A stretch of DNA of 64,000 nt. It comes from Actinomycetota bacterium. Its GTDB lineage: Bacteria > Actinomycetota > UBA4738 > HRBIN12. The notes under the pieces were generated by a model, which saw nothing but the letters and a program-made list of their open reading frames with translations, was not told where the DNA came from and did not search any database. The translations under genes were made by a program, and so were the position numbers. Of the stretch, positions 8,380 through 59,092 are shown piece by piece. Position 1 is the first letter of the stretch; each line of letters begins with the position of its first letter. The stretch spans positions 7,494 to 71,493 of the forward strand of contig JBBDHX010000030.1 in assembly GCA_040880745.1 (NCBI GenBank), given 5' to 3'.

Positions 8380-8408
8380 GGCCGCACGCTACCAAGGCTA
8401 GGCTGCGC

Positions 8409-11516: not shown

Positions 11517-11526
11517 GGCTCCGAGT

Positions 11527-25568: not shown

Positions 25569-25888
25569 GAAGACCGGGGTTGCCGCACGCGGGTTGGGAG
25601 CCTCTCATCGGTTCTGAGGCGCCCAACGTCGGTGGCGTACGGGTCAAGGGCGGCGGCCAACTTGTCCAGCACGCCGAGAGCGCGGGCTACTCGCAGAGTG
25701 TTCTCGAGGCTGGTCGAGCCTTCTCCATGCTCCAGGCTGCGAAGGGTCTTCACGTCGACGCCCGCACGGTCCGCGACCTGTGCAGCGGTGAGCCGTTGCA
25801 GCTTGCGCCATGTGACGATGTCCTCCCCCAGCTGGCGGAGTGCGCGCTGCACCGGGATCGGTATAGGCCTAGTCGCATTCCTTACCAT
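25565..25888 (-). CDS. hipB: HipB-like XRE-family HTH antitoxin
   Basis: HTH segment LTAAQVADRAGVDVKTLRSLEHGE. Coupled to hipA by an ATGA-type overlap. Confidence 0.7.
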   Translation of the reverse strand: MVRNATRPIPIPVQRALRQLGEDIVTWRKLQRLTAAQVADRAGVDVKTLRSLEHGEGSTSLENTLRVARALGVLDKLAAALDPYATDVGRLRTDERLPTRVRQPRSS

Positions 25889-25906
25889 AACAGGGAGGAT
25901 ACTACC

Positions 25907-25923
25907 GCTTAGACGCTCTAAGC
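25907..25923. promoter_or_regulatory. perfect palindrome gcttagaCGCtctaagc about 19 nt upstream of the hipB start; candidate HipB operator
   Basis: 7-3-7 inverted repeat in the lower-GC divergent promoter region between hipB and the lipoprotein gene. Confidence 0.4.
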
Positions 25924-26091
25924 GCCGATCTATTCCCTCTTATTCACGTTCGGGCGTCGTAGGACGCGCGACGTTCAGAGCGCACGCGCCGCCCACTTTC
26001 GAGATACAAGGATCGCAGGAATTCGATCACGCCGAGAAGATCCCCGAGGAAGGGGAGTCACAGGCTAACTCGGCCACGGCATGATCTAGCG

Positions 26092-26907: not shown

Positions 26908-26949
26908 GTGACGGCCGCCGGGACGGGTCCTCAGACGGTCGAGCACTCG

Positions 26950-27120
26950 TTCCGGGGGGAGGAGGAACGGATCGACCGACACACGCTCACCTGCATGTCA
27001 AGTTTCGATCCCACCGTGCGCACGCCTTGACAAGCCCTAGAACCGTGTGTCGCTCCGATCCAGGGGTCAGGAATGCTTACCGGCGCCTACCGCTCACACC
27101 GCCACCCTTTCCGTCCGGAC
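26950..27120. repeat. R1: member of the roughly 160-nt structured repeat family that starts with the tRNA 3-prime core gttccggggggagg
   Basis: Shares gacacacgctcacctgcatgtcaagtt...cttgacaag...ccgtgtgtcg...gcttacc with R2, R3 and R4. Confidence 0.6.
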
Positions 27121-27441
27121 CACCATCGAGTCGGGTAGCGTTCCGGACGTGAGCCAGACTTCTCCGAACGCACAACTTTGCGGATCGTTGACCACCATCT
27201 TGTGCGAATGTGAGCGGGAGCGTCTTGAGGGTGCCGTTGGTAGCGCGCCGCTGGGAAGGTTGACGCGCCAGTGAATGTCCCGAGTCTCCAACCGAAGGCG
27301 TCCGTGCGGGAAGGGAACTCGACTTGCGGACACGGCGACGGGCGAAGCGTCGGTTCGCCGTGAAAGGAAGGCGCGGTCTGTGAGCCTCGTGCAGTGCGCG
27401 AGGTCGGCACCAAGGCGAGTGCTGACGTGTAAGAGAACCCC

Positions 27442-27954
27442 GTGATGGACGAAACCGGCCGGCCTCTCGCATCCAGCGGCTCCGTCGAAGTCCGCGTGCT
27501 GACCGCGCCGACCCGTGCCGAGATCGACCAGCTCGCGGAGATCTTCGACCGGTATCGCCTCCACTATGGCGAAGCTGCTGACGCGTTACGGACGGCGAGT
27601 TGGCTGGAAGAGAACATCAGCAGCGGCCGCCTCGAAGCCTTCGTAGCGGAAGACAAAGGTGCGTTCGTCGGCTTTGCCATCACGATGACCGTTCCCGCAT
27701 CGCTGCGGCTCGGCCACTTCTGGCAGATCAGAGATATCTTCGTCTTGCCGAGCCATCGTCGCCTTCGCGTCGGTCGCACGCTGCTCGACTTCATTCGCGC
27801 CGCCGCAGTCAGAGCGGGTGCCTTACGCTTGGTCTTGCAGACGGAGGCCGACAACACCCCCGCCCTTCGTCTCTATGCCGAGAGCGGCTACACGGCGGTC
27901 GAGGGCTATCGCTCACTGACGCTGCCACTGACGCCTGATTCCCGGGGGAGCTAA
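27442..27954 (+). CDS. GNAT family N-acetyltransferase
   Basis: Acetyl-CoA binding motif RRLRVGRTLLDFIRAAAVRAGALRLVL...LYAESGY. Confidence 0.75.
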   Translation: MMDETGRPLASSGSVEVRVLTAPTRAEIDQLAEIFDRYRLHYGEAADALRTASWLEENISSGRLEAFVAEDKGAFVGFAITMTVPASLRLGHFWQIRDIFVLPSHRRLRVGRTLLDFIRAAAVRAGALRLVLQTEADNTPALRLYAESGYTAVEGYRSLTLPLTPDSRGS

Positions 27955-28136
27955 CCGGATTTCGTGTTTCTACGATGGCCGGCGGATCTACGACTCCTAC
28001 TCGCGACCACCGATCTTCGACTCGTCGATCCAACCGTACGAAGATCAGACGCACAAGGATCGGGTGCCTTGGTCGACGCGATGTTGTACCTCGCGAAACT
28101 CGAACTCCGATGAGCCCCTAGGGCCGTGATGCATCG

Positions 28137-28330
28137 TTCGGGGGGGAGGATAGGGCAAGCACGCCACACACGCTGACCTGCATGTCAAGCTGCACGTTCA
28201 GGATCCGATTTGAACTTGACAGGGTTCCGACCGTGTGTCGGGCGCTCAGGGCTTTCTGGACGCTTACTCCCGTTTACCAGCCAACGCGGCCACACGGATG
28301 GCCTCCGCCGTGTCAAGTCGGCCCCAGGAG
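28137..28330. repeat. R2: structured repeat family member (gttcgggggggagga...)
   Basis: ccacacacgctgacctgcatgtcaagct...cttgacagg...ccgtgtgtcgggcgctcagg...gcttactcccgtttacc. Lies between the convergent GNAT and VOC genes. Confidence 0.6.
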
Positions 28331-28460
28331 CCAGGTTCCTCGCGGTCACCTGGGCAGTCGCTCAAGCGGTGCTGGTCGCGACGGTTCCTCCGTCCGGCGA
28401 GCGGGCTGTTGGCCCGGCCCTGCACCGTGAGGTTGAGCCGCGGTCGGGGTGTCGGCGGGA

Positions 28461-28880
28461 TCAAGGGACGCCGGGACGGTGAGGCGCGTCGATCACCGGA
28501 TCGGGCGCATGCCATACGGCCTCGACGTTGTTCTGATGCAAGTCGTTCACGAATGCGGCGTAGTACCGCTCGGAGTACTGCGTCCACACGCCGGGCTCGC
28601 CCCGGATCGTGGCACCGTTCGCGACCGCGGCCTCGAAGAACGCGTCTACCTCCTCCCGACCCTCGGCGGAGAATGCAACATGAGCCGCCGTGGTCGCGGG
28701 CTCCCCCTGGCAGATCGTGAAGTCGTCCAGGTCCTCGGCCCCGTAGCTGACACAGTCGTCCTGAGCGTGAAGTTCTTCGTAGCCGAGTGGGGCGAGGGCT
28801 GCCGTATAGAACCGTCGGCTCGCGTCCAGGTCAGCCACGACGAAGAGCACGTGATCGACGATCACGCGCCGAACGCTCAT
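28461..28880 (-). CDS. VOC (glyoxalase/bleomycin resistance/dioxygenase) family protein
   Basis: Begins VDHVLFVVADLDASRRFYTAALAPLGY; paired beta-alpha-beta-beta-beta modules. Confidence 0.75.
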   Translation of the reverse strand: MSVRRVIVDHVLFVVADLDASRRFYTAALAPLGYEELHAQDDCVSYGAEDLDDFTICQGEPATTAAHVAFSAEGREEVDAFFEAAVANGATIRGEPGVWTQYSERYYAAFVNDLHQNNVEAVWHAPDPVIDAPHRPGVP

Positions 28881-28948
28881 CAGTCAACGCTATCAACACC
28901 GCGCATCCGACTCCAGCAACTTGACGTGCCAGAATGCCCTCTCAGAGT

Positions 28949-29110
28949 TGTTCCGGGGGGGAGGAAGTCCGAAGCAAGCGACACACGACCTCCTCGGTGT
29001 GAAGTTGGCAGTGGGACGCTAGCCACGACCCACGCCCGTGTGTCGAACGTTCAGCTGGTCTCGAACCGCTTACTGCCGCTTACCGGCAGCAACCTCCCCA
29101 CGTAAGAACC
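28949..29110. repeat. R3: structured repeat family member
   Basis: gttccgggggggaggaagtccgaagcaagcgacacacg...ccgtgtgtcgaacg...gcttactgccgcttacc, about 80 percent identical to R4. Lies upstream of the ECF sigma gene at 29210. Confidence 0.6.
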
Positions 29111-29209
29111 ATGCCGTGTCAAGGAGGATCGGTCCAGCGCCCTCGCTCGTGCGGAGGCTCCTGAGCCTGCCTCGTTAACCTTTCGAGGGCCTTCGGGCTC
29201 GTATGAGGC

Positions 29210-29701
29210 GTGAAGATGAGCGACCGCAGTGTGGTGAAGAACGAACGCAACTATGTGGCCCTGTACCGGACCACCGGCGTTGCGCTGTGGCGTGCCATCT
29301 ACGTGTACAGCGGGGGCTCGCGGGACATCGCCGACGATGCCGTCGCCGAGGCGTTCGCAAGAGCGATCCAACACGACGACGCTATTCGACGGCCTGAATC
29401 CTGGCTCTATCGCACGGCCTTTCACGTCGCGGCTGCTGAGCTTCGACAGAAGCGGTTTCTCGTTGACGCCCCCGAGCGTGCTGGGGACGAGGCGGTGGAC
29501 TTGACCGACCTCACGAAGGCTCTGCGCAGGCTGTCGCCGAATCAGCGTGCAGCCGTCTACCTCTTCTACCAAGCGGACCTCCCCATTCGAGAAGTGGCGG
29601 CTCTGATGGGGACATCGGTCACGGCCGTCAAAGTCCATCTACATCGGGGGAGACACCGGTTGCGTGACCTGCTGGGAAGTGAGGAGGCGGGAGATGACTG
29701 A
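29210..29701 (+). CDS. ECF sigma factor
   Basis: Region 2 (DDAVAEAFARAIQH) and region 4 (LPIREVAALMGTSVTAVKVHLHRGRHRLR). Stop overlaps the next gene. Confidence 0.85.
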   Translation: MKMSDRSVVKNERNYVALYRTTGVALWRAIYVYSGGSRDIADDAVAEAFARAIQHDDAIRRPESWLYRTAFHVAAAELRQKRFLVDAPERAGDEAVDLTDLTKALRRLSPNQRAAVYLFYQADLPIREVAALMGTSVTAVKVHLHRGRHRLRDLLGSEEAGDD

Positions 29702-30290
29702 GCGTTGGCTAGTGGAGATGCAGAAGGTCGACCGTTTGGAGCCGATCCCCGACCTATTGGCGAGGGCAGAAGTTGGTCCCTCGCTCGCCGAACCCAGCCT
29801 TCGTCCGGGGCGACGGGTAGCGGCGGGGCTCGTCGCGCTGGTGATCGCCATCGCGGGAGGGTGGCTGGCATTCAGCACTCTCAACGACTCGGGCGGGCGA
29901 CAGGCGACGGACGACGGCTCCTCCAGCGTCGTCGGATGGCCAGATGCCTCCGTCGCGGAGGCTCAGAAGGTTCAAGACAAAGTGGACAGCGGTGCGCCCG
30001 AGGTGCAGTGGCGTACAGACGCTGCTGCGGCTGCTCTACGCTATGGGCAGACGGTACTCGGATGGCCTTCCCCGTTGGCCGGGGTGAACGCAACGGACGA
30101 TCCCGATGTCGTTGTCGTTTCCCTGCACGGGCCGGACGCCTCGTGCGCGGCTCCCTGTTCTGGCTCCGTGTCACCAAAGTCCATCGCGATACTGACCTTG
30201 CAGCGACTCGTGCGCGAAGGTGACGGCGGAATCTGGAGCGTTACCTCGGTGGCGGACCAAGATGCCTTTCCGACCCAGCCTGCAGGCTGA
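29695..30290 (+). CDS. putative anti-sigma factor (single-pass membrane protein)
   Basis: ATGA overlap with the sigma gene; cytoplasmic N-terminus, a TM (AAGLVALVIAIAGGWLAF), and an extracytoplasmic domain with Cys pairs. Confidence 0.5.
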
Positions 30291-30348
30291 GCGTCCTCGG
30301 AGCCGACCGTCGTTCGGAGCCGTCTGCAGGGAGAACAGGCGGTTCGTT

Positions 30349-30555
30349 CGGTTCCGGGGGGAGGAAGGCCGAAGCAGGCGACACACGATCTCTTCGGTGT
30401 CAAGTTGGCGTTGGGAACTTGACACGCTTCGACCCGTGTGTAGAGCGCTCAGAGGGTTACGAGTCGCTTACTCCTGCTTACCGACGAAACACGACCCCAC
30501 CCCGGTCGTGAGCTGACACGTCAAGTGGCACACACACCCGCGCTCACGAGGATCA
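30349..30555. repeat. R4: structured repeat family member, with the clearest nested inverted repeats
   Basis: ggttccggggggaggaaggCCGAAGcaggcGACACACGatctCTTCGGTGTCAAGTTggcgttgggAACTTGACACgcttcgaccCGTGTGTag...gcttactcctgcttacc. Lies between two convergent anti-sigma genes. Confidence 0.6.
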
Positions 30556-31875
30556 TTCGATCGTGTTTGGTACCACCACTCGCGCCCAGGTCGCCCCATC
30601 CCAGTGCTCGACTAGAGGCATCGAGTGCCGCCCCCATTCCACTCCCACGATCCAAGCATCGTCCGCCGCAGCGACGAAGATCGACGACGCCGTTACATCG
30701 AAGTCGGTCGGGGGCACGATCAGGTCGCAGGTCGCCTCGGTGCAGCTTGCGACTGCCAGCGACGAGGTAGCCGGACTGCCAACCACCCATGCGGGGCCAG
30801 AAGCCGTGCCTCCGACTGCTTGGGCCGACCAAAGCGAGAGCCCGTTCACCTCGACCATCTCCCAAGTCCTACCGCTCCACCTGCGCATGAGCGCGTGCAG
30901 GTGGTGGTCCGACGCCCTGTAGTCCCCCAATGCCCAGACCGCGCCCGTGCCGTCAGCACCCATCCCCCAGATGATGTTGAGAGATCGGCTGGGGTCGGGT
31001 GCGGCCACGACGTCCCACGCTCGGCCATCCCAATGCATCGTCAACGTCGATCCTTCTCCGCTGCCCTGAGCGAGATCGACGGAATACCCACCGACCCATA
31101 CGTCGGTCGAGGACAGCGCGACGATCCCGGTGAGGTAGTTGTCTCTTGTCCCAGGATTCGGCGGCTGCATCACGGTCCAAGTGCTTCCGTCGAAATGCGC
31201 GACGGCGGACGAGAGACCTCGGGAGTTAGCTCCGATCAAGGGACCTGTCCGAGTGCCTGCCAGCCACACATCGCTTGGTCCGAGCGCCGAGAGCGCACCG
31301 TAGTTACCACGAGGCAGCGGCTCCGTCGTCCACTCCGCTCCGTTCCAGTGGAGGAGACCCCCGTAGCCAAGTGCCCAGGCGTCATCTGGCGAGGTGGCGT
31401 CCACGGCGATCAAGCGGCCGACATCGGGGACAGTCGTCGTCGTCCAGGAAGCGCCATCCCAATGAACGACCAGCGAGTGATCGTTCCCACCGTCGCCATG
31501 CGTCTCACCGACCGCCCATATGTCGGTCCCCCCCGCTCCGTCGATGGCTGCAAGCGATGAGCCTGGATGAGCGGCGACCTGGCCGTCACCCGGCCCGAAT
31601 CCAGGTCCAGGCTGCACGCCGTTCGCCTGGGAGGCTCGTGGACCCGTTTCCTGAGGAACCGTTCGATTGCTTAGGACCGCAGCGATCCCAAGAGAGACTA
31701 AGACGACGCCCGCGAGCGCGATCCATGCGCGATACCAACGAGCCGGAATGCGTTCTTGCCCGCGCACCAACTCGGAGGAGGCATGGAAGCGACGCAGTTC
31801 GGCGTCGGCGTCGATAGCCCAACCGCTATCAACCTCACGAAGCCATGATGCGACCAGTCGATTGGGCTCGTTCAT
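30553..31875 (-). CDS. anti-sigma factor with six-bladed beta-propeller-like HWDGxxW repeat ectodomain
   Basis: The N-terminus has an anti-sigma-like cytoplasmic segment plus a TM (WIALAGVVLVSLGIAAVL). Six repeats of about 45 aa are each centred on (H/R)W(D/N/S)G..W. 4-nt overlap with the upstream sigma gene. Confidence 0.55.
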   Translation of the reverse strand: MNEPNRLVASWLREVDSGWAIDADAELRRFHASSELVRGQERIPARWYRAWIALAGVVLVSLGIAAVLSNRTVPQETGPRASQANGVQPGPGFGPGDGQVAAHPGSSLAAIDGAGGTDIWAVGETHGDGGNDHSLVVHWDGASWTTTTVPDVGRLIAVDATSPDDAWALGYGGLLHWNGAEWTTEPLPRGNYGALSALGPSDVWLAGTRTGPLIGANSRGLSSAVAHFDGSTWTVMQPPNPGTRDNYLTGIVALSSTDVWVGGYSVDLAQGSGEGSTLTMHWDGRAWDVVAAPDPSRSLNIIWGMGADGTGAVWALGDYRASDHHLHALMRRWSGRTWEMVEVNGLSLWSAQAVGGTASGPAWVVGSPATSSLAVASCTEATCDLIVPPTDFDVTASSIFVAAADDAWIVGVEWGRHSMPLVEHWDGATWARVVVPNTIE

Positions 31876-32390
31876 AAGTGCGCCTCCTCGATCCCCTCAT
31901 CGAGAAGCAGCCGTAGTCGCCGCCGAGCCCGGGCTGTATGAGTCCTGACGCTCCCAGAGGGGATGTGCAGAATCCTGGCCACTTCTCGCGAGTCCATACC
32001 CGCGTAGTCGGTCAGAACGATGCAGGTGCGTTGGCGATCCGTAAGCGCTTTGAGCGCATCGACGATCACCAACCGGGTGGTCATCTCCTCACCCTCGAAG
32101 GGATGCCCCGCGTCGCGGAGGGATTCACTTGGATCGTTCGAAACCTTCTTACGCCGTCGAGATTCGGATCGAGCGAGATTCAGGCCGATGCGCATGACGG
32201 AGTTCCTGACGTGCTCTGGGGATTGGTAGCGGTCCCATCGAGCCCATGCGCGGGCGAACGCTTCTTGTGCCAACTCGATGCCATCCTCTCGGTTACCAAC
32301 CACCAACCCGAGGGACCTTGCAACAGTCGAGAACTGGGCTCGGAAGAGCTCGTCGAAGTCCTCCGTGCGGTTCCCTCCTCTACCGATCTG
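31872..32390 (-). CDS. ECF sigma factor; annotated ORF start at 32306 is a TTG and region 2.1 lies upstream of it with no canonical start
   Basis: Region 2.2-2.4 (GNREDGIELAQEAFARAWARW) and region 4 (LTDRQRTCIVLTDYAGMDSREVARILHIPSGSVRTHTARARRRL). The in-frame upstream segment TEDFDELFRAQFSTVARSLG looks like region 2.1, but it runs into a TGA at 32391-32393 with no ATG or GTG. Confidence 0.7.
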   Translation of the reverse strand, partial: QIGRGGNRTEDFDELFRAQFSTVARSLGLVVGNREDGIELAQEAFARAWARWDRYQSPEHVRNSVMRIGLNLARSESRRRKKVSNDPSESLRDAGHPFEGEEMTTRLVIVDALKALTDRQRTCIVLTDYAGMDSREVARILHIPSGSVRTHTARARRRLRLLLDEGIEEAHL

Positions 32391-32471
32391 TCATGTATAC
32401 GCATGGAGCGGCAACAGTGCACACAACACCGGGTCAATCCGTTCGACCCGGACGTCAGCCTCCGAGTGGGT

Positions 32472-32542
32472 TCCGGGGGGAGGGATCGAACCTCCATCTC
32501 AGGCTCCAAAGGCCCGCGTCTTGCCGTTAGACGACCCCGGAG
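32472..32542 (-). tRNA. tRNA-Gln(UUG)
   Basis: Manual fold: acceptor TCCGGGG/CCCCGGA; D arm GTCT-AACGGCA-AGAC; anticodon stem CGGGC/GCCTG with loop CTTTGGA (anticodon TTG); variable loop AGATG; T arm GGAGG-TTCGATC-CCTCC; discriminator A. Total length is 72 nt; CC is encoded after the discriminator. Confidence 0.7.
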
Positions 32543-49255: not shown

Positions 49256-49645
49256 TCAGACCCTGACGACCTCGAGCCCCGGCAAGCCATCGAAGTCCGC
49301 GTCCTGTGTGTACAGCGGCAAGCCGTTGACGACGGCTGTCGCGGCGATGACCGCATCGGCCGTGTTGAGGCGCTCGCGGCCGCGGCGTCGTGACAGCCTC
49401 TGGAGCTCGGCGCACCGCCGAGCCACGATCTCGTCGAACACGAGCGCGTCGAAGGCGTTCTCCACCCACGAGAGGGTGCGAAGCCGCCGAGCACGGATAC
49501 GCTCCCCGGGCGCCATGAGCACACCGAGATGCAACTCCGCCAGGGTCATCGCCGAGATAGCGCCGTCGTCCGGGAAGGAAGCGAGGGGCCGACCGGACTC
49601 GAGCGCGACGAAGATCGATGTATCGAGGAGAGCCGCTACGCCCAC
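49256..49645 (-). CDS. vapC: PIN-domain toxin VapC
   Basis: LDTSIFV... Conserved acidic residues across the PIN fold; overlaps the upstream antitoxin gene. Confidence 0.8.
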   Translation of the reverse strand: MGVAALLDTSIFVALESGRPLASFPDDGAISAMTLAELHLGVLMAPGERIRARRLRTLSWVENAFDALVFDEIVARRCAELQRLSRRRGRERLNTADAVIAATAVVNGLPLYTQDADFDGLPGLEVVRV

Positions 49646-49896
49646 GGGTCCTCCATCACGTCGTCGGGATCGCGAACGTCAGCCATGAAGCCCGGATCCA
49701 GGGGTGCCTCGCGGATGATCCGCTCGATGATGGGCCATGGGACGAAGGTGCGGCGCTCGCGGATGGGCACGAGGTCGGCCATCGGCCTTCCATCGACCGT
49801 GACGCGATAGGTCACCCCTGCCTCCACCTCCTTGAGGATCCGACTCACGTCGTTGCGGAGCTCCCGGAGGGGGATCGTACGCATCGGCTCTGACAT
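49636..49896 (-). CDS. vapB: Phd/YefM-type antitoxin VapB
   Basis: Begins MSEPMRTIPLRELRNDVSRILKEVEAGVTYRVTVDGRPMADLVP. Located at the C-terminal end of the chimeric ORF 49636..51531. Confidence 0.65.
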   Translation of the reverse strand: MSEPMRTIPLRELRNDVSRILKEVEAGVTYRVTVDGRPMADLVPIRERRTFVPWPIIERIIREAPLDPGFMADVRDPDDVMEDPWA

Positions 49897-49945
49897 GCGA
49901 CGACCGTAGCACTGCGTAGCACATGGGGCAAGTCCGGCCGGTCCG

Positions 49946-50397: not shown

Positions 50398-51849
50398 GTG
50401 GCCGACCTCGATGCCGTGCACCGCGATCTGGAGCGAGCACTTGGCCCCGGGGCCGTCACGGCCGACCCGCTCACCCGCAAGCTCTACGCACGCGACGCCT
50501 CGCTGATCGAAGGCGATGCCGGCCTCGTCGTGTTCCCCGCCGATGCGGATCAGGTGATGGCGGCGATGAAGATCGCGGCCACGCACGGCGTGGCGGTCGT
50601 CCCCCGCGGGAGCGGCACCGGTCTGACGGGCGCCTCGACACCGCTGAACGACGCCATGGTCCTCGTCACGTCGAAGATGACGCGGATCCTGGAGATCCGT
50701 CCCGAGGATCGCCTCGCGTGGGTCGAGCCGGGCGTCTTCAACCTCGATCTCTCCGAGGCGCTCCGCCCCACCGGCTTCCACTACGCGCCCGACCCCTCCT
50801 CCCAGCAGGTGTCGACGATCGGCGGCAACGTGAACACGAACGCGGGCGGGCCGCACTGTCTGGCCTACGGCGTGACGAGCGCGCACGTGCTGGCGCTCGA
50901 CGTGGTGCTCGCCGACGGCTCGCTCGTGCGCCTCGGATCCGAAGGGCCGGCCGCTTCCGGCTACGACCTGCGCGGCTTCGTGGTGGGCAGCGAGGGCACA
51001 CTCGGCGTCGTGGTCGCGGCGTGCGTCCGGCTGACGCCGAACCCGCCGGCCGTCCGCACGATGCTGTTGGACTTCGCCGACGTCGAAGCGTGCGCGCGGA
51101 CCGTCTCGGCGATCGTCGCAGCGGGCGTCGTGCCGGCGGCCTTGGAGATGATGGACCGAGGGATCGTGCGCGCCGTCGAGGCGTTCGCACACGCCGGCTA
51201 TCCGGTGGACGCCGCCGCGGTGCTGCTCGTCGAGCTCGACGGGGGCGACGCGGCCGTGGACGCGCAGACAGCGGGGGTGCAGGCGGCCGCCCGTGCGAAC
51301 GACGTCGGCACCGTGCGCATCGCCGCCGATGACGCCGAGCGCGCGCTGCTGTGGAAGGGCCGCAAGTCCGCGTTCGGCGCCATCGCCCGGATCGCGCCCC
51401 ACTACCACCTGCACGACTGCGTGGTGCCGCGCACGAAGCTCGCGCCGATCCTCACCGGCATCTACGCCATCGCGAAACGCCACGGTCTGATCGTCACGAA
51501 CGTCTTCCACGCCGGGGACGGGAACCTGCACCCGCTCTTCTCGTTCGACCGCGCGGTCCCCGGGACGCTGGAGCGAGCATTGGCGGCCGCCGACGAGCTG
51601 GTGCGGCTGTGCGTCGACGCCGGAGGATCACTCTCCGGGGAGCACGGCATCGGTCTGGAGAAGCGGGATTTCATGCCCCTGGTCTTCAGCGAGGACAGCC
51701 TCGATGTGCAGGCGTGCCTGCGCGAGGCGTTCGACCCGAACGGACGGATGAACCCGTCGAAGGTGCTGCCCGACGGGGCGCGCTGCGGCGAGTTCGCGGC
51801 CGCGACCATCGGGCGCGAGGGAGCGCTGCCGGAGGGCACGTGGATCTGA
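50398..51849 (+). CDS. glcD: FAD-linked oxidase, glycolate oxidase subunit GlcD-like
   Basis: FAD-binding PCMH domain (VVPRGSGTGLTG) plus C-terminal FAD-oxidase domain. Confidence 0.9.
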   Translation: MADLDAVHRDLERALGPGAVTADPLTRKLYARDASLIEGDAGLVVFPADADQVMAAMKIAATHGVAVVPRGSGTGLTGASTPLNDAMVLVTSKMTRILEIRPEDRLAWVEPGVFNLDLSEALRPTGFHYAPDPSSQQVSTIGGNVNTNAGGPHCLAYGVTSAHVLALDVVLADGSLVRLGSEGPAASGYDLRGFVVGSEGTLGVVVAACVRLTPNPPAVRTMLLDFADVEACARTVSAIVAAGVVPAALEMMDRGIVRAVEAFAHAGYPVDAAAVLLVELDGGDAAVDAQTAGVQAAARANDVGTVRIAADDAERALLWKGRKSAFGAIARIAPHYHLHDCVVPRTKLAPILTGIYAIAKRHGLIVTNVFHAGDGNLHPLFSFDRAVPGTLERALAAADELVRLCVDAGGSLSGEHGIGLEKRDFMPLVFSEDSLDVQACLREAFDPNGRMNPSKVLPDGARCGEFAAATIGREGALPEGTWI

Positions 51850-52922
51850 TCCATCCGCACGCGGCGCACGACGTCCAGGAGGCGATACGCGACTGCGCCG
51901 CCGCGGGACGACGCCTGCTCGTGGTCGGTGGGCGCCAGCACCTGGACAAAGGCGACCAGACCGAGGTCGACGCCGAGCTGTGGACGACGCTCCTGGACGA
52001 CGTGGTCACGTACGACCCGGCCGAGATGCTCATCGTGGTGGAGGCCGGGATGCGCGTCGGCGAGCTGCGCCGGGCGCTGGCGCGCCGCGACCAGGAGTGG
52101 CCCATCGATGCACCCGATGACACGACCGTCGGAGGCATCATCGCGGCCGGCATCGAGCCAATCCGCCGGCTGCGGGTCGGCCTGATGCGTGACACCGTCG
52201 TCGAGATGGAGGCGGTGCTCGGTGACGGCCGGCGCATCACGAGCGGCGCCCGCGTCGTGAAGAACGTGAGCGGCTTCGACGTGCACCGGTTGCTGACCGG
52301 TTCGCTCGGGACCCTCGGCGTGATCACGCAGGTGGCCCTCAAGGTCCGGCCGATCCCGAAAGCGGCGGTGACGCTCGTCACGAGCGAAGGCGGGTTGGCG
52401 CTCGGAGGGCGGTTGCTCGACGCGCTGTGGCAACCGGCGGCCGTGCTCGCGGAACCGGGACGGGTGATCGTCCGCCTCGAGGGCTGGCCGGCCGAAGTGG
52501 CCGAGCAGTCGGCCACCGTCCGCGCGCTGGCGACCTGCGAGGAGGCGGACGACGGCGCGTTCACGGAGCCGCCGTTCGCTGCGTCGCCGATCCTGGCAGA
52601 GGTCGGTGTCGTCCCCTCGCGCCTGAGCGAGGTCCTGGACGGCTCGACCGCCTACCGCGCGCTGCTCGGCGTCGGGACGGCGTGGGTGCCGTGCACCGAC
52701 CAGGGCGAACTCGCGTCACTCCGGAGAACCGTCGTCAAGGCTGGAGGCATCGCACCGGTGATCCGAGGTCCTGGCGGCTTGGGCGACGCAGATCTCCCTG
52801 CCGTCGAGATCGACGCGAGGATCAAGGCCGCGTGTGATCCTTCGTCGATCCTCACACCCGGCCGCGGGTGGGGTGGATCCATGACGATCATCCGGGGGCG
52901 GCCTCCGGGATCTGATCGATAA
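51840..52922 (+). CDS. glcE: glycolate oxidase FAD-binding subunit GlcE-like
   Basis: FAD-binding PCMH domain. GTG start overlaps the glcD stop. Confidence 0.75.
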   Translation: MDLIHPHAAHDVQEAIRDCAAAGRRLLVVGGRQHLDKGDQTEVDAELWTTLLDDVVTYDPAEMLIVVEAGMRVGELRRALARRDQEWPIDAPDDTTVGGIIAAGIEPIRRLRVGLMRDTVVEMEAVLGDGRRITSGARVVKNVSGFDVHRLLTGSLGTLGVITQVALKVRPIPKAAVTLVTSEGGLALGGRLLDALWQPAAVLAEPGRVIVRLEGWPAEVAEQSATVRALATCEEADDGAFTEPPFAASPILAEVGVVPSRLSEVLDGSTAYRALLGVGTAWVPCTDQGELASLRRTVVKAGGIAPVIRGPGGLGDADLPAVEIDARIKAACDPSSILTPGRGWGGSMTIIRGRPPGSDR

Positions 52923-52947: not shown

Positions 52948-54081
52948 TCAGGTACGTGAAAGCCGCTCCCCTGCCGCCTCCAGGGTCTCCAGCCGCTTGC
53001 AGAAGGCGAACCGCAGCAGGTGCTTGCCCAGGTCGGCGTTCGAGAAGAACGACGAGCCGGGAACCGCGGCGACGCCCATCTCCCGGACCAGGTGCATCGC
53101 CGCCGCCGTGTCGTCGGCGAACCCGAGCGATGAGACATCGGCCATCACGTAGTACGCACCCTCGGGTGCCACGGCCGCGAACCCGGCGGCTTCGAGGATC
53201 TGCATCATCAGCGCGCGCCTGGCCTCGTAGTCCGCGCGCATCGAAGCGAAGTAGTCCTCGCCGAGTCCCAGCGCGGTCACGCCGGCGTGCTGCAACGGGG
53301 TCGCAGCCCCGACCGTCATGAAGTCGTGCGTCGCGCGGATGCCCTTCATCAACGCGGGCGCCGCTATCGCCCAGCCGACACGCCAGCCCGTGACGCTGTA
53401 TGTCTTCGAGAGCGCGCTGACCGTCACCGTTCGCTCGCGCATCCCGGGGAGCGTGGCGATCGGGACGTGCTCGCGGCCCTCGTAGGTGATGTGCTCGTAG
53501 ATCTCATCCGTGATCGCGATGACGTCGTGCTCGACGCAAAGCTCCGCGATCAACCCCAGCTCTTCGCGCGTGAAGACCTTGCCGGTGGGGTTGTGGGGCG
53601 AGTTCACGACGATCGCTCGGGTCGCCGGGCCGAAGGCCGCGCGGAGCGCGTCGGGATCGAACGACCAGGCGGGCGGGCGGAGCGTGACGAAGCGACGGGT
53701 CGCCCCGGCAAGGATCGAGTCGGGCCCGTACGCCTCGTAGAAGGGTTCGAAGAGGATCACCTCGTCGCCGGGGTCGAGCAAGCCGAGGAACGATGCCATC
53801 ACGGCTTCGGTGGAGCCGCACGTGACGCAGATCTCGGTCGCGGGATCGATGTCCATCGCGTAGGCACGCCGGTATTCGGCGGCGATGGCATCTCGGAACG
53901 CCGGCACGCCCCACGTGATCGGATATTGGTTGTGATCCTCTGCGATCGCACGCGCGGCGGCGTCCTTCAGTTCCTGTGGCGCCGGGAAGTCGGGGAAGCC
54001 CTGGCCAAGGTTCACGGCGCCATGGAGGTTGGACAACCGGGTCATCTCACGGATGACCGATTCCGTGAACGATGACGCCTT
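52948..54081 (-). CDS. pyridoxal phosphate-dependent aminotransferase, class I (kynurenine/aspartate aminotransferase-like)
   Basis: NLGQGFPDFPAP, NQYPITWG and SALSKTYSVTGWRVGW (PLP lysine). Start at MPGLRSS inside ORF 52948..54309. Confidence 0.9.
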   Translation of the reverse strand, partial: KASSFTESVIREMTRLSNLHGAVNLGQGFPDFPAPQELKDAAARAIAEDHNQYPITWGVPAFRDAIAAEYRRAYAMDIDPATEICVTCGSTEAVMASFLGLLDPGDEVILFEPFYEAYGPDSILAGATRRFVTLRPPAWSFDPDALRAAFGPATRAIVVNSPHNPTGKVFTREELGLIAELCVEHDVIAITDEIYEHITYEGREHVPIATLPGMRERTVTVSALSKTYSVTGWRVGWAIAAPALMKGIRATHDFMTVGAATPLQHAGVTALGLGEDYFASMRADYEARRALMMQILEAAGFAAVAPEGAYYVMADVSSLGFADDTAAAMHLVREMGVAAVPGSSFFSNADLGKHLLRFAFCKRLETLEAAGERLSRT

Positions 54082-54103
54082 CGAAGATGATCGGAGCCCC
54101 GGC

Positions 54104-54682
54104 ATGTCGGCTGATGATAGTTCCGCGCGCAGGAAGGGCCTCGGTGGAGAATGGGCCGTGCGCCCGAACTGCAAGATCATCGCCTCGCTGGTGCTTGCCA
54201 CCGCTTCAGGCTTGGTCTTCACTGCTCCGGCGTCGGCGGCGCTGTGCGCGAGGTGGGATCCCCCACCGCAGGCCGACGAAGGGACACAGGTACTCGTCTC
54301 GTTCCGCACCTTCGTCCCGGTATCGACGACTGGAGACGACTACACCCTCGAACCCCATGCGTTCCCTGACTATCCGTTCAGGGTCCAGGCCGTCGCGCCA
54401 AACGGAACGATCTCGGTGATCAGGATGTACGCGCGTTCAGATGACGAGCGGGTGTGGACGGGTAGCTTCACACCCAGCCAGGAGGGAGCTTGGACTCTGA
54501 CGATCGCCAACCTCCAGGGCGGGGACGCAGCCTGCTCCATCGACGCGACGCTCTCCGTTGAGAAAGGATCCGGTATCAACGCGGCAAGCTACGTCCTCAT
54601 CGCACTGGGTGTCATCGTCGTGGGCCTTGCCGGATTCGAGTTGGTCAGAAGACGCCGCTCACATGCTGAGTCGCCGACCTAG
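54104..54682 (+). CDS. secreted hypothetical protein with C-terminal TM anchor followed by an RRRR tail
   Basis: Signal-like segment KIIASLVLATASGLVFTAPASAA. C-terminus is YVLIALGVIVVGLAGFELVRRRRSHAESPT. Start uncertain. Lower local GC. Confidence 0.5.
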   Translation: MSADDSSARRKGLGGEWAVRPNCKIIASLVLATASGLVFTAPASAALCARWDPPPQADEGTQVLVSFRTFVPVSTTGDDYTLEPHAFPDYPFRVQAVAPNGTISVIRMYARSDDERVWTGSFTPSQEGAWTLTIANLQGGDAACSIDATLSVEKGSGINAASYVLIALGVIVVGLAGFELVRRRRSHAESPT

Positions 54683-54748
54683 CGCGACGGAAACGAACCG
54701 AGTTCTCGTACAAGGAGGCCAGATACGAGGCGTGGCTGTGTGGTCCCC

Positions 54749-55411
54749 TTATGCGTGCACCGAGCGCGGAGGGCGCCGTCTCCTGGTCAGAATCGTTACG
54801 AACGTGACGGCCACCAGCGCCCCCGCGATCCACAGCGGGATAGTCAGGGAACCTCCTGGCACGGTGTTGATCGGGTCCCCCCTTACGTCGCTCCCGACCG
54901 CTGGCGACTGCGCTCCCGACAGGGGTGTCGCCGGGAGCCCCAACCCGATCAGCGTCTCTCTGAAGCCGACATTTCCGGCGAACCATGCGCCCTTTGTCTC
55001 GGCGTTGCCCCAGTACTCCTGGTTCGGAGGCATGTACGTGATCGGCCGGGGCTCAGCGTACGGGAAGACGTACTGGACGATGTCGCTCGAAGGGCGGTCC
55101 GCCGACGCTATCGTGTATGTGATGGTGTATCGGGGACCAAGACTCCCGGCCGGTCGGTGAGCCAGACGACCGTGCGCGTCAGTGCCGCCCCAGATGCCCA
55201 CAAAGAACCCGGACTGCGTCACCACGTTGGCAAGATCCGGCCCGATCGTCGACGAGCCCGGCTCCCTCAGTGTGATCGGATGTGCCAGTCCGGGTCCGGT
55301 AATGACTCCTTGCCAAGGTCCCTTCGCGAACGCCGAAGGCGCCGCGAAGATCGCCGCGATGAACGCGGCCATCGCAACCAACGCCACGATAAGTCCACGA
55401 CGATGCTTCAC
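54749..55411 (-). CDS. secreted hypothetical protein with C-terminal TM anchor followed by an RRRR tail
   Basis: Signal peptide MKHRRGLIVALVAMAAFIAAIFAAPSAFA. C-terminus is LTIPLWIAGALVAVTFVTILTRRRRPPRSVHA. Confidence 0.55.
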   Translation of the reverse strand: MKHRRGLIVALVAMAAFIAAIFAAPSAFAKGPWQGVITGPGLAHPITLREPGSSTIGPDLANVVTQSGFFVGIWGGTDAHGRLAHRPAGSLGPRYTITYTIASADRPSSDIVQYVFPYAEPRPITYMPPNQEYWGNAETKGAWFAGNVGFRETLIGLGLPATPLSGAQSPAVGSDVRGDPINTVPGGSLTIPLWIAGALVAVTFVTILTRRRRPPRSVHA

Positions 55412-55459
55412 AGGGCTGGTCTACCACTGGCAGCGACGTAGTGCCACCCTCAAAGGCTA

Positions 55460-55865
55460 GAGGGTGGAACTGAAGTCCCTTGTGCTCGTAGAAGGGCTCG
55501 AACAGGATCACCTCGTCCCCGGGGTCGAGCAAGCCCAGGAACGACGCCAGCACGGCTTCGGTGGAGCCGCACGTGACGCAGATCTCCGTGGAGGGATCGA
55601 TGTCCATCGCGTAGGCACGCCGGTATTCGGCGGCGATGGCATCCCGGAACGCCGGCACGCCCCACGTGATCGGGTACTGGTTGTGATCCTCGTCGATGGC
55701 TCGCGCAGCCGCGTCCTTCAGCTCGTGCGGCGCGGGGAAATCGGGGAACCCCTGGCCGAGGTTGATCGCGTCGTGATCCTGGGCGACCCGGGTCATCTCG
55801 CGGATCACCGACTCCGCGAACGACGATGCCTTCGTAGACGCGTGCGATCTGGACAGAGGGGTCAC
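55460..55865 (-). pseudogene. 5-prime fragment (about 130 codons) of an aminotransferase paralog; duplicate of 53690-54081 at about 88 percent nucleotide identity
   Basis: MTPLSRSHASTKASSFAESVIREMTR...DPGDEVILFEPFYE aligns with residues 1-128 of the full-length gene. It then runs into unrelated sequence, which is ORF 55179..55865. Confidence 0.7.
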
Positions 55866-56058
55866 ATGCCGGCACCTACTCGGGCTCCAGGAAGGCCAGG
55901 TTCACGGTCAGGGCCTCGACGTCGAGGGTCCAGATAACCCCCACGCTCGTCCCGGTGATGGTTGCCGAGAAGACACCAGCATCTCGAGCCAGATCAAGAC
56001 CCGGATCTCTTCGATGAGTGGCCGATGGCTGTTGAGGTAAGGGAGGAGATTCGCAGCC

Positions 56059-56256
56059 TCAGCCTCGAGGCCGAGCTCCCAGCGAGAGCCGGGCATCGAT
56101 GAGCTTCCGGATATCGTCGGCGTTCATGCCGGGGGTCGATCTGCCCTCGCGCGCTCTCCGGAGAGCAGCCTCGATGCTCCTCTGGACCTCCGGATCAACA
56201 CGGATCTTCCTGGATACCAGCGGCTCGGGCTCGATCGGCTGGGCTCGTTCGGTCAT
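56059..56256 (-). CDS. putative ribbon-helix-helix (CopG/Arc-like) small DNA-binding protein, orphan
   Basis: MTERAQPIEPEPLVSRKIRVDPEVQRSIEAALRRAREGR: a beta-strand followed by two helices. No convincing toxin partner nearby. Confidence 0.4.
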   Translation of the reverse strand: MTERAQPIEPEPLVSRKIRVDPEVQRSIEAALRRAREGRSTPGMNADDIRKLIDARLSLGARPRG

Positions 56257-56370
56257 CGAACACCTCGCTCTCGACGGGGGCAACATCGCAGTGAGTCATC
56301 ACGGAGTCAACCACGTGGCACTGACATCGCTCCGGCGGTTCCCCCCTCACCGGCCGTAGGATCGGAGGCC

Positions 56371-57627
56371 ATGGAAGAGGTGCTCGGCGCCGATCTGCCC
56401 GCGGGAGCGCGGTTCGTCGAACCCGCTGCCGGCGCCGAGCCCGGGTGGCGTCCGGGGCGTGCCGTCCCGACGCCGGCCGATCTCGACACGTGTGTCGCAT
56501 GCGGGTTGTGCCTGCCGCACTGCCCCACCTACCGGCTGACCGGCGAGGAGTCCGCGTCACCGCGCGGGCGCATCGCCGCGATGCGGCTCGTGAGCCAGGG
56601 CGTGGCGAGCCCTGATCGCACGTTCGCGTCGTTCATGGACGCGTGCTTGGTGTGCCGGGCATGCGAGGACGTGTGTCCATCGCACGCGCCGTTCGGGCGG
56701 ATGATGGAGGCCGCGCGCGAGCAGATCGAGCCCACGCGCGGACCGGTCTCGCGGCTCCTGCGGTGGATCGGGTTCGCGTGGATCTTGCCGCATCCCTCGA
56801 TGCTCCGCGCTGCCGCCGCGGTGCAGCCGCTCGTCAGGCCGATCCTGCCCCGGAGCGTGCGCGACCTCCTCCCCGGCACCGGGCACCCGTTCGCGCGTCT
56901 GCCGCGCGTCACCGAACCGCCGTTCGGCGTGCGCGAACGCGGCACGGTGGCGCTCCTGGCCGGGTGCGCGCAGGACCGATGGTTCCACGAGGTGAACCTC
57001 GCGACGATCCGCGTGCTCGCGGCGACCGGGTGGCGCGTGGAGGTGCCGAGGCAGCAGGCGTGTTGCGGGGCGCTCGCCGCGCACAACGGACGGCTCCCGA
57101 TCGCCCGGCGTCTGGCGCGGCGAGCGAACCACGCGTTCCGTGGTGCCCAGCACGTGATCGTGAACGCCGCGGGGTGCTCGGCGCACATGACGGGGTTCGA
57201 GGACCTGCGCGAGGTCCCCGCCGTGGATCTGATGCGCTTCTTGGCTGAGCAGGGGCCGGGCGAAGCGACGTTCGGGCCCGTCGAGACGACGGTCGCCTAC
57301 CACGACGCGTGCCACGCCTCCCGCGCCCAGCAGATCCGCGCCGAGCCCCGCACGGTCCTCGGCTGGATCCCCGGCCTGCGGACCGTGGAGATCCGCGACG
57401 GCGACCGCTGCTGCGGCGCCGCCGGGATCTACAACGTGACCCAGCCGGAACTCTCCGGTGCGCTTCGGCGCGAGAAAGCCGCGGCCGTCGTATCGACCGC
57501 CGCGAGCGTCGTCGCGAGCGCCAACCCCGGGTGCACGATGCAGATCGCGGCCGGCCTCGCGGCGAAGGGCGCGGCCGTCGAGGTCCTGCACCCGGTCCAA
57601 CTGCTCGACCGCGCGCTCCCCGTCTGA
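56371..57627 (+). CDS. glcF: glycolate oxidase iron-sulfur subunit GlcF-like (Fe-S/CCG-domain protein)
   Basis: Two ferredoxin-type CxxCxxC(P) clusters (CVACGLCLPHCP; CLVCRACEDVCP) and C-terminal CCG cysteine-rich domains. Confidence 0.85.
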   Translation: MEEVLGADLPAGARFVEPAAGAEPGWRPGRAVPTPADLDTCVACGLCLPHCPTYRLTGEESASPRGRIAAMRLVSQGVASPDRTFASFMDACLVCRACEDVCPSHAPFGRMMEAAREQIEPTRGPVSRLLRWIGFAWILPHPSMLRAAAAVQPLVRPILPRSVRDLLPGTGHPFARLPRVTEPPFGVRERGTVALLAGCAQDRWFHEVNLATIRVLAATGWRVEVPRQQACCGALAAHNGRLPIARRLARRANHAFRGAQHVIVNAAGCSAHMTGFEDLREVPAVDLMRFLAEQGPGEATFGPVETTVAYHDACHASRAQQIRAEPRTVLGWIPGLRTVEIRDGDRCCGAAGIYNVTQPELSGALRREKAAAVVSTAASVVASANPGCTMQIAAGLAAKGAAVEVLHPVQLLDRALPV

Positions 57628-57679: not shown

Positions 57680-59092
57680 TCAACGAGCGAGTCTGAACCG
57701 CTCCGCGATCCGTTGGATCTCCGAACCAGCTCGGTAGCCGCCGCCGCTCAGACGAACCATGAGGTCGGCCAACCCGCCGGTGGAGCCTGCGTCGCGCATC
57801 GCGGCATCGATGGCCCTGGCGCGTGCGGCCCCGGTCACGACACCGAGGTCCCTGGTGAAGGACGTCCGCCCGCGAACGCTCCGGCCACCGACCAGCGAGA
57901 TCCGCTCACCGGCGTCCTGGCCGGGGAGCACGACGACGGCGTTGGTGACTGCGCGCTGATACCCCCCCGACGGCTGGTTCACGACCCCCAACCCGGTGAC
58001 CCACATCGTGGCGCCTCCGCCCCCGTCCAGGTTGAGCGCGTCGACGGCGCCCAGGTTGCGCATGTAGAGGGCGAGCTGCCGCGGATTCATGCCGATGGAA
58101 TCGCTCCGGCGTCCGTCCACGACCACCAACAGGATGGAGCCGCGAGCCGTCACACCGATCGCGGTCCGCGGATGGCGCAGGCAGATGTAGCCGCCGCATA
58201 TCGTCGCGACCACCCTGCCGTCCTGCAGCAGGAGCGGATAGCCCCCGATCACGTCCACGACCTGCGGCGTGCCCTGGCTCCAGCGAACGCGGACACTGCC
58301 TCCGGAAGACAGCGACTTGATCCACGCGGAACCCGTCCCGTTGCGCCGCGAGGAGAGGATCACGTTCCCGCTGTACACGTTCATGCTGCTCCCACCACAC
58401 ACCCGCGCCTTCACGTCATAGCTCCGGTACACGCCATCAGAGCCCCGGTCGAGGTGGATCCTGCTCGAGGGCACCAGACGCACCGAGCATGCGTCCGTGG
58501 GCGGGGTCACGCTCGTCGCCCCGAAGGAGGTGTAGGCGCGGATCTGGCTGGACTTGGGCACGCCGACGTTCCACTTCGCGACGCGGACGCCGCCGGATGA
58601 GCCCGAGAGATCCGTCGCGCGGATCCGGACGGCCGCGTCGTTGGCGGCCCCACCCTGCTTGTCGTGGCGCACGCCGAAGGTCGACCCCTTGAACATGCCG
58701 CTCGTCATGAGCGAACCGTCGTCCGCGAAGGCGTGGGCAGGCTCCCCGAATCGGCCGCCGAAGTCACCGTTGATCGCCGCGATGGCGCCAACGGACTGCG
58801 CGATGACGGAGGTCTTCGCGTACGAACCCATCGTGTTCCCCGCCAGGACGGGATCCACGGTTGGGGTCGATTCGGGGGCGATCTTCACCACGAAGATCTC
58901 CCAGGGGCCGGCGGGATCCACGATCTTCTGGTAGACGACCCCCGGAGCGATGGTCCGCCTGGTGACGGATGCCCCTGACGGGATCGCCGCCTGCGTCCCC
59001 ACCGCTCCACCGAGCACCGTACCCGTCACCAACCCGGCGACCATCGCCGCCTTCAGCCCTCGTGTGCGCATCGTGCATACCCCCGGATCCAT
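57680..59092 (-). CDS. secreted phosphodiester glycosidase family protein (NAGPA/DUF2233-like)
   Basis: Signal peptide. GYPLLLQDGRVV and LNLDGGGG motifs. Confidence 0.7.
   Translation of the reverse strand: MDPGVCTMRTRGLKAAMVAGLVTGTVLGGAVGTQAAIPSGASVTRRTIAPGVVYQKIVDPAGPWEIFVVKIAPESTPTVDPVLAGNTMGSYAKTSVIAQSVGAIAAINGDFGGRFGEPAHAFADDGSLMTSGMFKGSTFGVRHDKQGGAANDAAVRIRATDLSGSSGGVRVAKWNVGVPKSSQIRAYTSFGATSVTPPTDACSVRLVPSSRIHLDRGSDGVYRSYDVKARVCGGSSMNVYSGNVILSSRRNGTGSAWIKSLSSGGSVRVRWSQGTPQVVDVIGGYPLLLQDGRVVATICGGYICLRHPRTAIGVTARGSILLVVVDGRRSDSIGMNPRQLALYMRNLGAVDALNLDGGGGATMWVTGLGVVNQPSGGYQRAVTNAVVVLPGQDAGERISLVGGRSVRGRTSFTRDLGVVTGAARARAIDAAMRDAGSTGGLADLMVRLSGGGYRAGSEIQRIAERFRLAR

Follow-up and report, generated by a model that had tools for sequence, protein, structure and literature searches.

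A probable scar of target-restoring integration in the aminotransferase gene of an Actinomycetota glc locus

We analyzed a 64,000-nucleotide stretch of the genome of an Actinomycetota bacterium (assembly GCA_040880745.1, contig JBBDHX010000030.1, positions 7,494 to 71,493; hereafter the window), in which a gene for a class I/II pyridoxal phosphate (PLP)-dependent aminotransferase lies within a glycolate oxidase type (glc) locus and a partial copy of its 5′ end stands upstream of it. We read this region as the mark left when a unit that restores its target integrated site-specifically into the aminotransferase gene, and put the probability of this reading at about 0.62. The break falls at a fixed nucleotide, the 5′ end now joined to the gene is foreign to it, the same arrangement recurs in other genomes, and in some of these the displaced 5′ ends form serial arrays. 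The features on which the argument rests are as follows.

52948–54105, minus strand: full-length class I/II PLP-dependent aminotransferase, 385 aa (PF00155, E=7e-60)
53734–55484, minus strand: putative inserted unit, 1,751 bp, a length equal to the repeat period
54158–54682, plus strand: ORF-A, 174 aa from a GTG at 54158 (refined start; 95 cluster representatives)
54749–55411, minus strand: ORF-B, 220 aa (96 homologues)
55443–55467, minus strand: stem-loop with an 8-bp stem and an 8–9-nt loop (folding z = −2.3 to −2.6)
55469–55484, minus strand: junction motif CACAAGGGACTTCAGT, directly after codon 124; candidate element-side arm of an attachment site
55485–55865, minus strand: putative displaced native 5′ end of the aminotransferase (PF00155, E=9e-12), here called the fragment

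The repeated 5′ end and its origin

A direct repeat of the aminotransferase 5′ end, in the same orientation and roughly 88% identical, had already been described in an original prediction made from this sequence, and it is confirmed. Positions 53734–54090 align without gaps with 55485–55841 over 357 bp in direct orientation, at an offset of 1751 and with 87–88% identity (88% over the best 300 bp and 87.4% over codons 9–124). The coordinates first given for the second copy, 55460–55865, overshoot by about 25 bp on either side; instead of 130 codons the repeat comprises codons 6–124, and it ends directly after the codons for the motif FEPFYE. At its other end the similarity stops ~15 nt, or about five codons, inside the coding sequence, which leaves the promoter outside the repeat. 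N-terminal alignment with homologues also moves the start of the intact gene to 54105, 24 nt beyond the 54081 first assigned. The fragment itself begins with a GTG at 55865 and has 124 homologous codons ending in FEPFYE. Its open frame then continues out of frame to 55179 in a tail that resembles non-coding DNA, with a GC content at third codon positions (GC3) of 0.57 as against 0.89–0.90 in the homologous part. The structure is not an artefact of assembly, since positions 53863–55580, which take in both junctions, are matched with 100% identity by an independently assembled Logan contig (L081, 1718 bp, from run SRR27977663), and the two repeat copies differ at 44 sites.

The differences between the copies (about 44–46, distributed as 10/3/34 over the three codon positions) correspond to a ratio of non-synonymous to synonymous divergence (dN/dS) of 0.12–0.13 at a synonymous divergence (dS) of 0.48, and there are no indels, frameshifts or stops in 119 codons. 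An in-place duplicate with one neutrally evolving copy is expected to show a dN/dS of roughly 0.5; a value of 0.12 without an indel or a stop therefore argues that this is not an in-place duplicate of which one copy has been dead since the split. Of 13 changes on the lineage of the fragment, only 4 are non-synonymous. The original prediction had considered an old insertion or duplication that left a gene fragment with its own start codon. The insertion and the start codon stand, while a duplication of the resident gene does not fit this dN/dS, and we rejected an in-place tandem duplication with a decaying copy because neither the neutral rate of non-synonymous change nor the indels that it predicts were seen.

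Comparison with related loci indicates which of the two 5′ ends is native. The fragment lies closer than the intact 5′ end to three relatives, with dS values of 0.48 versus 0.68 to L090 (the closest relative, with 88% identity in the aminotransferase and 89% in glcD), 0.72 versus 1.34 to L092 and 0.71 versus 1.00 to L082. The 3′ part of the intact gene is 0.63, 0.69 and 0.77 from the same three loci, distances that resemble those of the fragment. At the 44 differing sites the relatives share the state of the fragment 27 times and that of the intact copy 13 times (p=0.04), and within codons 10–36 the polarity is 20 versus 2 (p=1e-4). Across 119 reference aminotransferases, similarity to the 3′ part of the gene tracks similarity to the fragment (Spearman rho 0.34, p=2e-4), whereas the corresponding value for the gene's own 5′ part is 0.02. 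Composition also changes within the gene, with a GC3 of 0.815 in codons 1–124 and 0.908 in codons 125–385 (Fisher p=0.012). Residues 22–31 of the intact copy read TRLSNLHGAV, a type found in distant lineages and in unit-borne copies and unlike that of close relatives; the fragment carries the signature TRVAQDHDAI, like L090, L092 and L082.

The polarity, the correlation with the 3′ part and the GC3 step thus point to the fragment as the original partner of the 3′ part and to the present 5′ part as an import. On these sequence comparisons the aminotransferase is now chimeric, with codons 1–124 (53734–54105) imported and codons 125–385 native, and formerly had a single 5′ end, the one now represented by the fragment at 55485–55865. 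We infer that the fragment no longer has a function and that its displacement is too recent for decay to have set in. The best NCBIfam matches of the intact enzyme are PRK07777 and methionine-aminotransferase-like models, under their equivalog cut-offs.

The inserted unit and the recurrence of its break

Read in the direction of the aminotransferase gene, the 1,751-bp unit begins with the junction motif, continues with ORF-B, then ORF-A and a divergent promoter region, and closes with the surrogate codons 1–124 of the aminotransferase; its only genes of its own are ORF-A and ORF-B. Since it encodes no integrase, it can be at most a remnant or a non-autonomous relative of an integrative element. 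Its right-hand site is hidden within the reading frame, so a flanking pair of attachment (att) sites cannot be delimited. At the other end, eight DNA junctions break at the identical nucleotide and share the consensus AACAAGGKnCnTTTC; in pairwise comparison they agree on average at 48% of the first 16 nt versus 23–29% beyond, and the motif is short and partly native-like. The hairpin at 55443–55467 had been taken for the point at which identity between the copies ends. The hairpin is real, but it is not the break point: identity ends at 55485, 18 nt before it, so that the stem-loop lies 18 nt inside the unit, upstream of ORF-B, and it has no U-tract. We also considered a conserved hairpin as part of the site and rejected it, because notable stems were found only at the junctions of the window, L085 and L128.

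The same break is widespread. In a protein search with the fragment, with the hits aligned to the intact enzyme (matches P0097–P0216), homology ends after residue 124 in 16, after residue 127 in 6 and after residue 128 in 4 among the 120 short aminotransferases listed, other end points being represented mostly by one to three proteins each. The residues that follow the break are mutually related (NKG, YKV, NKV, KKV or DNV, then a stop). In all, we find the break in at least 20 database fragments, counted as clusters, and in seven other genome or metagenome contexts. Several of these 5′ fragments have been deposited as 'aminotransferase class I/II-fold pyridoxal phosphate-dependent enzyme' with no partial or pseudogene flag. 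The variant FEPYYE, present in some fragments, was discarded as a crossover marker, as 9 of 120 full-length genes have it too.

Where the genomic context is available, the order is again fragment, small cargo and full-length gene, mostly between glcF and glcE, and analogous units of 888–2009 bp are present in L086, L087, L128 (two units) and L129. The L086 unit is 968 bp long and carries a homologue of ORF-A; its fragment and intact 5′ end are 77% identical with a dS of 0.96, a distance like that between orthologues of different families. In L087, L088 and L089 a 2009-bp unit carries an extracytoplasmic function (ECF) sigma factor and a 295-aa protein, and in L129 and L130 a 987-bp unit carries a 161-aa secreted protein, while L112 provides the junction only. 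Two or three displaced fragments can stand in series ahead of one intact gene. In L128 they lie at 9075–9448 and 10010–10381, in units of 933 and 888 bp of which the newer carries a Barstar gene; in L086 a further, partial fragment at 7174–7335 precedes the one at 8007–8378. The oldest fragment of a series is frameshifted (L128) or truncated (L086), and such arrays imply repeated events at one site. We conclude that the FEPFYE-coding stretch is a recurrent, previously unannotated integration hot spot of an understood type.

A candidate recombinase is encoded at one of these loci. In L085 the fragment abuts glcF on one side, and 32 nt past its stop codon lies the gene for a 428-aa large serine recombinase (Pfam Resolvase; PHROG integrase, E=4e-67; NCBIfam XisF/Ccr-like). 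Beyond it are genes for a Doc-like toxin, an Arc-like repressor, a head maturation protease and a small terminase, a gene set that could be a prophage or a phage satellite. In type, the junction motif of this locus, TACAAGGTGCGTTTCC, agrees with the motifs found at the small units. The features of large-serine-recombinase prophages are thus present in L085 only, and not in the window. The L085 element (8428–16396) also carries a DUF4145 DNA-binding protein.

Proposed integration and competing explanations

We propose that the FEPFYE-coding stretch serves as the attachment site for a family of target-restoring integrative elements. The 1,751-bp unit would have entered at codon 124, pushing the native 5′ end upstream, where it would be left to decay. 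Because the unit ends in a promoter and homologous codons 1–124, entry reconstitutes the target gene and the encoded enzyme keeps its full length, host codons 125–385 now presumably being read from the imported 5′ end. Repeated events would stack the displaced fragments in series. Integration may be catalyzed by a large serine recombinase of the L085 kind, and the unit in the window would then represent what remains of such an element after deletion or, alternatively, a small unit that depends on a recombinase acting in trans. An excised circle would join the 53734-side sequence (...TTCTACGAG) to CACAAGGGAC, and an empty site would join the fragment directly to GCGTACGGGCCC. The cargo, too, seems to move, as ORF-A of the window is nearer to the unit-borne ORF-A of the distant L086 (56% identity) than to that of the closest genome, L090 (47%). 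A stronger version of this proposal would treat the 0.9–2 kb recombinase-less units as a working cassette-exchange system, in which surface or regulatory genes, a promoter and surrogate codons 1–124 are stacked at one codon by a serine recombinase provided in trans by a phage or satellite; we regard this version as doubtful.

Several observations weigh against site-specific integration. Over codons 37–124 the two copies are about 91% identical and the polarity is even (10 versus 11), which requires that gene conversion followed later or that the donor was a mosaic. The junction motif is short, and its first 8 nt match the native sequence at 6 of 8 positions. The 1.75-kb unit carries no recombinase gene, nor was a homologue of the L085 recombinase found anywhere in the 64-kb window; the link to a recombinase comes from that single locus, where the element is seen on the fragment side only, and a recombinase-bearing element with a surrogate 5′ end is an arrangement that we infer rather than observe. 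Large serine recombinases normally distinguish the arms of attP from those of attB, and an attP made of near-identical aminotransferase coding sequence would be unusual. IMG/VR was queried with a single protein, an alignment, the degenerate junction pattern and the L085 recombinase: nothing beyond chance matches of low GC came from the scans with the aminotransferase fragment or the junction motif, and the scan with the recombinase returned one homologue, 30% identical and with no aminotransferase beside it. A metagenome scan with the junction pattern gave 32 loci, among which only L112 was relevant, adding one junction. Finally, in L090 ORF-A adjoins the aminotransferase where there is no fragment, so this pairing can be native.

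The main rival explanation is that the break arose only once, for example by a phage insertion, and that the unit of junction, cargo and codons 1–124 has since spread as a small circle or linear fragment, entering by homologous recombination (Campbell-type or homology-facilitated illegitimate) within the 372 bp of homology and so reproducing the same break. The lack of recombinase genes in the units agrees with it, as does the long homology arm, which is what RecA-type recombination requires; the mosaic within the repeat (codons 10–36 versus 37–124) resembles a crossover or conversion tract, and serial arrays of direct repeats are what repeated single crossovers should produce. Yet only ~16 nt past the break are conserved and the sequence beyond is unrelated, which suggests a constrained site and not the common descent of an end. 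A Campbell crossover near codon 37 also predicts a reversed polarity downstream, where we find 10 versus 11, and in L085 a recombinase gene sits exactly at the junction. We consider this explanation unlikely, though it is the one to be taken most seriously beside site-specific integration.

It is more improbable that the intact gene and ORF-A are native, as they would be in L090, and that the foreign block consists of the small ORFs, the fragment and ORF-B (54683–56370), placed between glcF and ORF-A with the fragment as a passenger junction from another genome. L090 does have glcF, ORF-A and the aminotransferase in a row, the four ORFs of the block all lie on one strand, and the small ORFs and ORF-B have a low GC3. 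The fragment, however, has a native-like GC3 (0.89–0.90) and is the copy nearer to L090, L092 and L082, whereas it is the 5′ end of the intact gene that is the outlier in both sequence and GC3; moreover, fragment, cargo and gene are likewise contiguous in L086, L128 and L129, and ORF-A of the window is not closest to that of L090. We find it very improbable that the resident 5′ end was partially duplicated in tandem around an old insert and then drifted. The copies are each other's closest nucleotide match (87%) and lie in direct orientation, as such a duplication would leave them, but a dN/dS of 0.12, 119 codons free of frameshifts and stops at a dS of 0.48, the asymmetric polarity, the identical break in unrelated lineages and the L086 copies, as divergent as orthologues of different families, all argue otherwise. 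Almost no weight falls on a chimeric contig joining the alleles of two strains. The source is indeed a metagenome-assembled genome (MAG; protein P0312 lies on a 91-kb MAG contig), but the independent Logan assembly reproduces both junctions and many assemblies from other projects, Mb-scale contigs included, have the same architecture.

Site-specific integration by a target-restoring unit also has precedents. In the case of SXT, as Hochhut and Waldor are said to have described in 1999, the target gene stays functional through a new promoter and 5′ coding sequence brought in by the element. SXT, a ~100-kb element, uses a tyrosine integrase, whereas the unit in the window is 1.75 kb long and has no integrase; further differences from SXT are a surrogate of 124 codons, a single recombinase seen at the site that is of the serine type, hosts that belong to uncultured Actinomycetota, and displaced ends that occur in series. 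In islands at tRNA or tmRNA genes a copy on the element restores the target, the displaced piece forms a direct repeat at the far end, and repeated integration gives serial repeats; CIMEs are att-bounded units that can be without a recombination module of their own. Target-restoring tRNA-gene islands, tandem accretion and recombinase-less derivatives would thus be the general class to which the present unit belongs, by analogy, with the difference that the target here is protein-coding and the replaced part is its 5′ third, promoter included. L085 also resembles prophages of the phiC31, TG1 and SPbeta types in that its recombinase gene adjoins the junction and a phage-like element interrupts a class I aminotransferase within a conserved motif. 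Actinophage TG1 has its attB in an aminotransferase gene as well, dapC, but at the PLP-lysine motif rather than at FEPFYE. As a rule such prophages leave the target split and unrestored, with an attP arm that is not a copy of the target gene, and the window, for its part, has no recombinase. Orphan toxin-immunity arrays of Rhs and CdiA share with these loci serial displaced ends at one conserved motif and modules that bring small accessory genes, and one unit here carries Barstar; there the displaced pieces are 3′ ends lying downstream of a polymorphic toxin and move by homologous recombination, whereas here they are 5′ ends upstream of a metabolic enzyme. What is particular to the present case is the aminotransferase of a glc locus as target, a surrogate of 124 codons and a promoter, small and diverse units, and serial relics.

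The cargo proteins, the glc locus and wider relevance

The two genes of the unit had been described as convergent and of lower GC, and both prove to be real and conserved (96 homologues and 95 cluster representatives), with a GC3 of 0.76 as against 0.87–0.92 in the glc genes. We did not take this as proof of recent import, as homologues of both families have an equally low GC3 (0.71–0.80) in every genome; the value fits accessory genes and gives no date for the insertion. Each protein has a signal-like N-terminal helix and a C-terminal transmembrane helix followed by RRRR, a shared architecture noted at the outset and borne out by structure predictions and by conservation within the families. 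ORF-A is predicted to consist of a signal peptide, an Ig/filamin-like β-sandwich, a transmembrane helix and the RRRR tail (AlphaFold2 pLDDT 91), with filamin domains as its best Foldseek matches (E=6e-4), and the C-terminal helix is present in 44 of 59 members of its family. The gene is divergent from the aminotransferase across a 52-bp spacer, a position also held by homologues in L090 (47% identity) and in the L086 unit (56%), which makes it a recurrent divergent neighbor of the aminotransferase. For ORF-B the model comprises a signal peptide, an α/β ectodomain, a disordered linker and a transmembrane helix (AlphaFold2 pLDDT 83), and the fold has no match in the PDB with E<0.39. Among 95 full-size members of this family, all have the C-terminal helix and 89 the basic cluster. 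The basic tail follows the pattern TRRRRxRxSVxA, with 6–7 further conserved residues after the basic cluster, and GGS stands just ahead of the helix. An exact-protein look-up of ORF-B from its first ATG found nothing; the recorded gene starts at Met14.

The common C-terminal architecture had been put forward as a possible new sorting signal or membrane anchor. Like proteins handled by LPXTG/sortase, GlyGly-CTERM/rhombosortase and PEP-CTERM/exosortase systems, ORF-A and ORF-B end in a hydrophobic helix and arginines; unlike the corresponding tripartite signals, they match no signature-motif model, including those of NCBIfam, and the two proteins are unrelated and share no motif. As noted at the outset, LPXTG is absent, and the Pfam Gram_pos_anchor model is approached by ORF-A only, at E=0.036 and 14.5 bits against a cut-off of 20. 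No sortase-like processing enzyme was found in the fetched neighborhoods, with no genome-wide search made. A hydrophobic helix with a basic cluster is the outcome of the positive-inside rule for any type I membrane protein and is not specific. The plain reading is that ORF-A and ORF-B are predicted to be ordinary single-pass type I membrane proteins; they would be passenger genes for cell-surface proteins and stand outside the recombination machinery.

Two further kinds of gene recur around these loci. A near-identical secreted protein of 161–165 aa is encoded upstream of the aminotransferase in L130 (1953–2438), within a fragment-bounded unit, and in L082 (4654–5151), where there is no fragment. 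Genes for ECF sigma factors are found beside ORF-B homologues (in L082 and L083 as sigma/anti-sigma genes) or as cargo upstream of the aminotransferase, at L082:1877–4517, L083:1980–4486, L087:3556–4936 and L092:9339–9872; at three of these four loci an adjacent unassigned protein of 286–381 aa is encoded beside the sigma factor, and none was called in L092. These associations hint that the variable region trades in envelope-stress modules.

The surrounding genes in the window are the following.

50398–51849, plus strand: glcD-like FAD oxidase subunit (PF01565 and PF02913)
51846–52922, plus strand: glcE-like FAD oxidase subunit (PF01565/PF02913 evidence given jointly with glcD)
55908–56096, minus strand: small ORF, 62 aa
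56059–56286, minus strand: small ORF, 75 aa, overlapping the preceding one
56371–57627, plus strand: glcF-like Fe-S subunit with CCG domains (PF02754 and Fer4 families)

Read on the minus strand, the order is glcF (reversed), the two small ORFs, the fragment, ORF-B, ORF-A (reversed), the aminotransferase, and glcE and glcD (both reversed). The domain architecture is that expected of glcDEF, namely FAD_binding_4 and FAD-oxidase_C in GlcD, FAD_binding_4 in GlcE, and Fer4 and two CCG domains in GlcF. From their sequences the three genes are assigned to a glycolate oxidase type locus, putative as to substrate. The insert had been thought to separate glcDE from glcF. It does not, as the aminotransferase itself sits between glcE and glcF in L001–L004, L086, L090, L092, L128 and L129. 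The interval between glcF and the aminotransferase is hypervariable, from 100 bp in L003 to 4.8 kb in L004, and contains an ORF-A homologue in L090 and a NAGPA (phosphodiester glycosidase) gene with an ECF sigma factor in L092. In L090 glcF, ORF-A and the aminotransferase are consecutive with nothing between them, and the fragment, ORF-B and both small ORFs are missing there; L092, with L090 among the closest relatives, likewise has no aminotransferase fragment.

The small ORFs at 55908–56286 have a GC3 of 0.70–0.75, are absent from all related loci and match nothing in Pfam, NCBIfam or PADLOC even at permissive thresholds. The label of ribbon-helix-helix protein once given to the 75-aa ORF thus lacks any match to a hidden Markov model (HMM) in these collections, and a toxin–antitoxin reading of the pair, conceptual frameshift repair included, was dropped with no HMM support. 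A third frame beside them runs to a stop a few bases ahead of the start codon of the fragment. On the far side of glcF the window encodes a secreted protein with a NAGPA domain (57680–59092, minus strand), and L092 has such a protein twice (5304–6629 and 8083–9240), one on each side of glcF. Just past glcD lies a PIN-domain (VapC-like) gene with an antitoxin-sized ORF upstream (49256–49900), and a PhdYeFM and PIN pair occupies the matching place in L090 (9366–10006). An Rfam scan of the window returned one tRNA only. A tRNA-Gln gene (32469–32541, minus strand) ends a stretch of ~8 kb of lower GC (24400–32540; 61–66% versus ~70%) with genes for a HipA-like kinase (24303–25568), a GNAT acetyltransferase (27442–27954) and an ECF-type sigma factor (31872–32306) with an unassigned 440-aa neighbor; no integrase was detected in this stretch beside the tRNA.

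With the suggestion of a new sorting signal removed, what the locus offers is an explanation for the pattern of a gene fragment next to a full gene in Actinomycetota MAGs, which spans at least 20 clusters, some of them named as complete aminotransferases. The recurrence of the break at the same codon in many uncultured soil Actinomycetota could not be seen from the single sequence on which the original prediction was based. A chimeric enzyme matters for phylogeny and for the use of the aminotransferase gene as a marker. If the doubtful cassette-exchange version were true, uncultured soil Actinomycetota would use the aminotransferase gene much like an integron, as a platform on which accessory envelope genes are placed. 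High-GC Actinomycetota for which genetic tools are at present lacking could gain a new attB/integrase pair from the FEPFYE site and the candidate serine recombinase.

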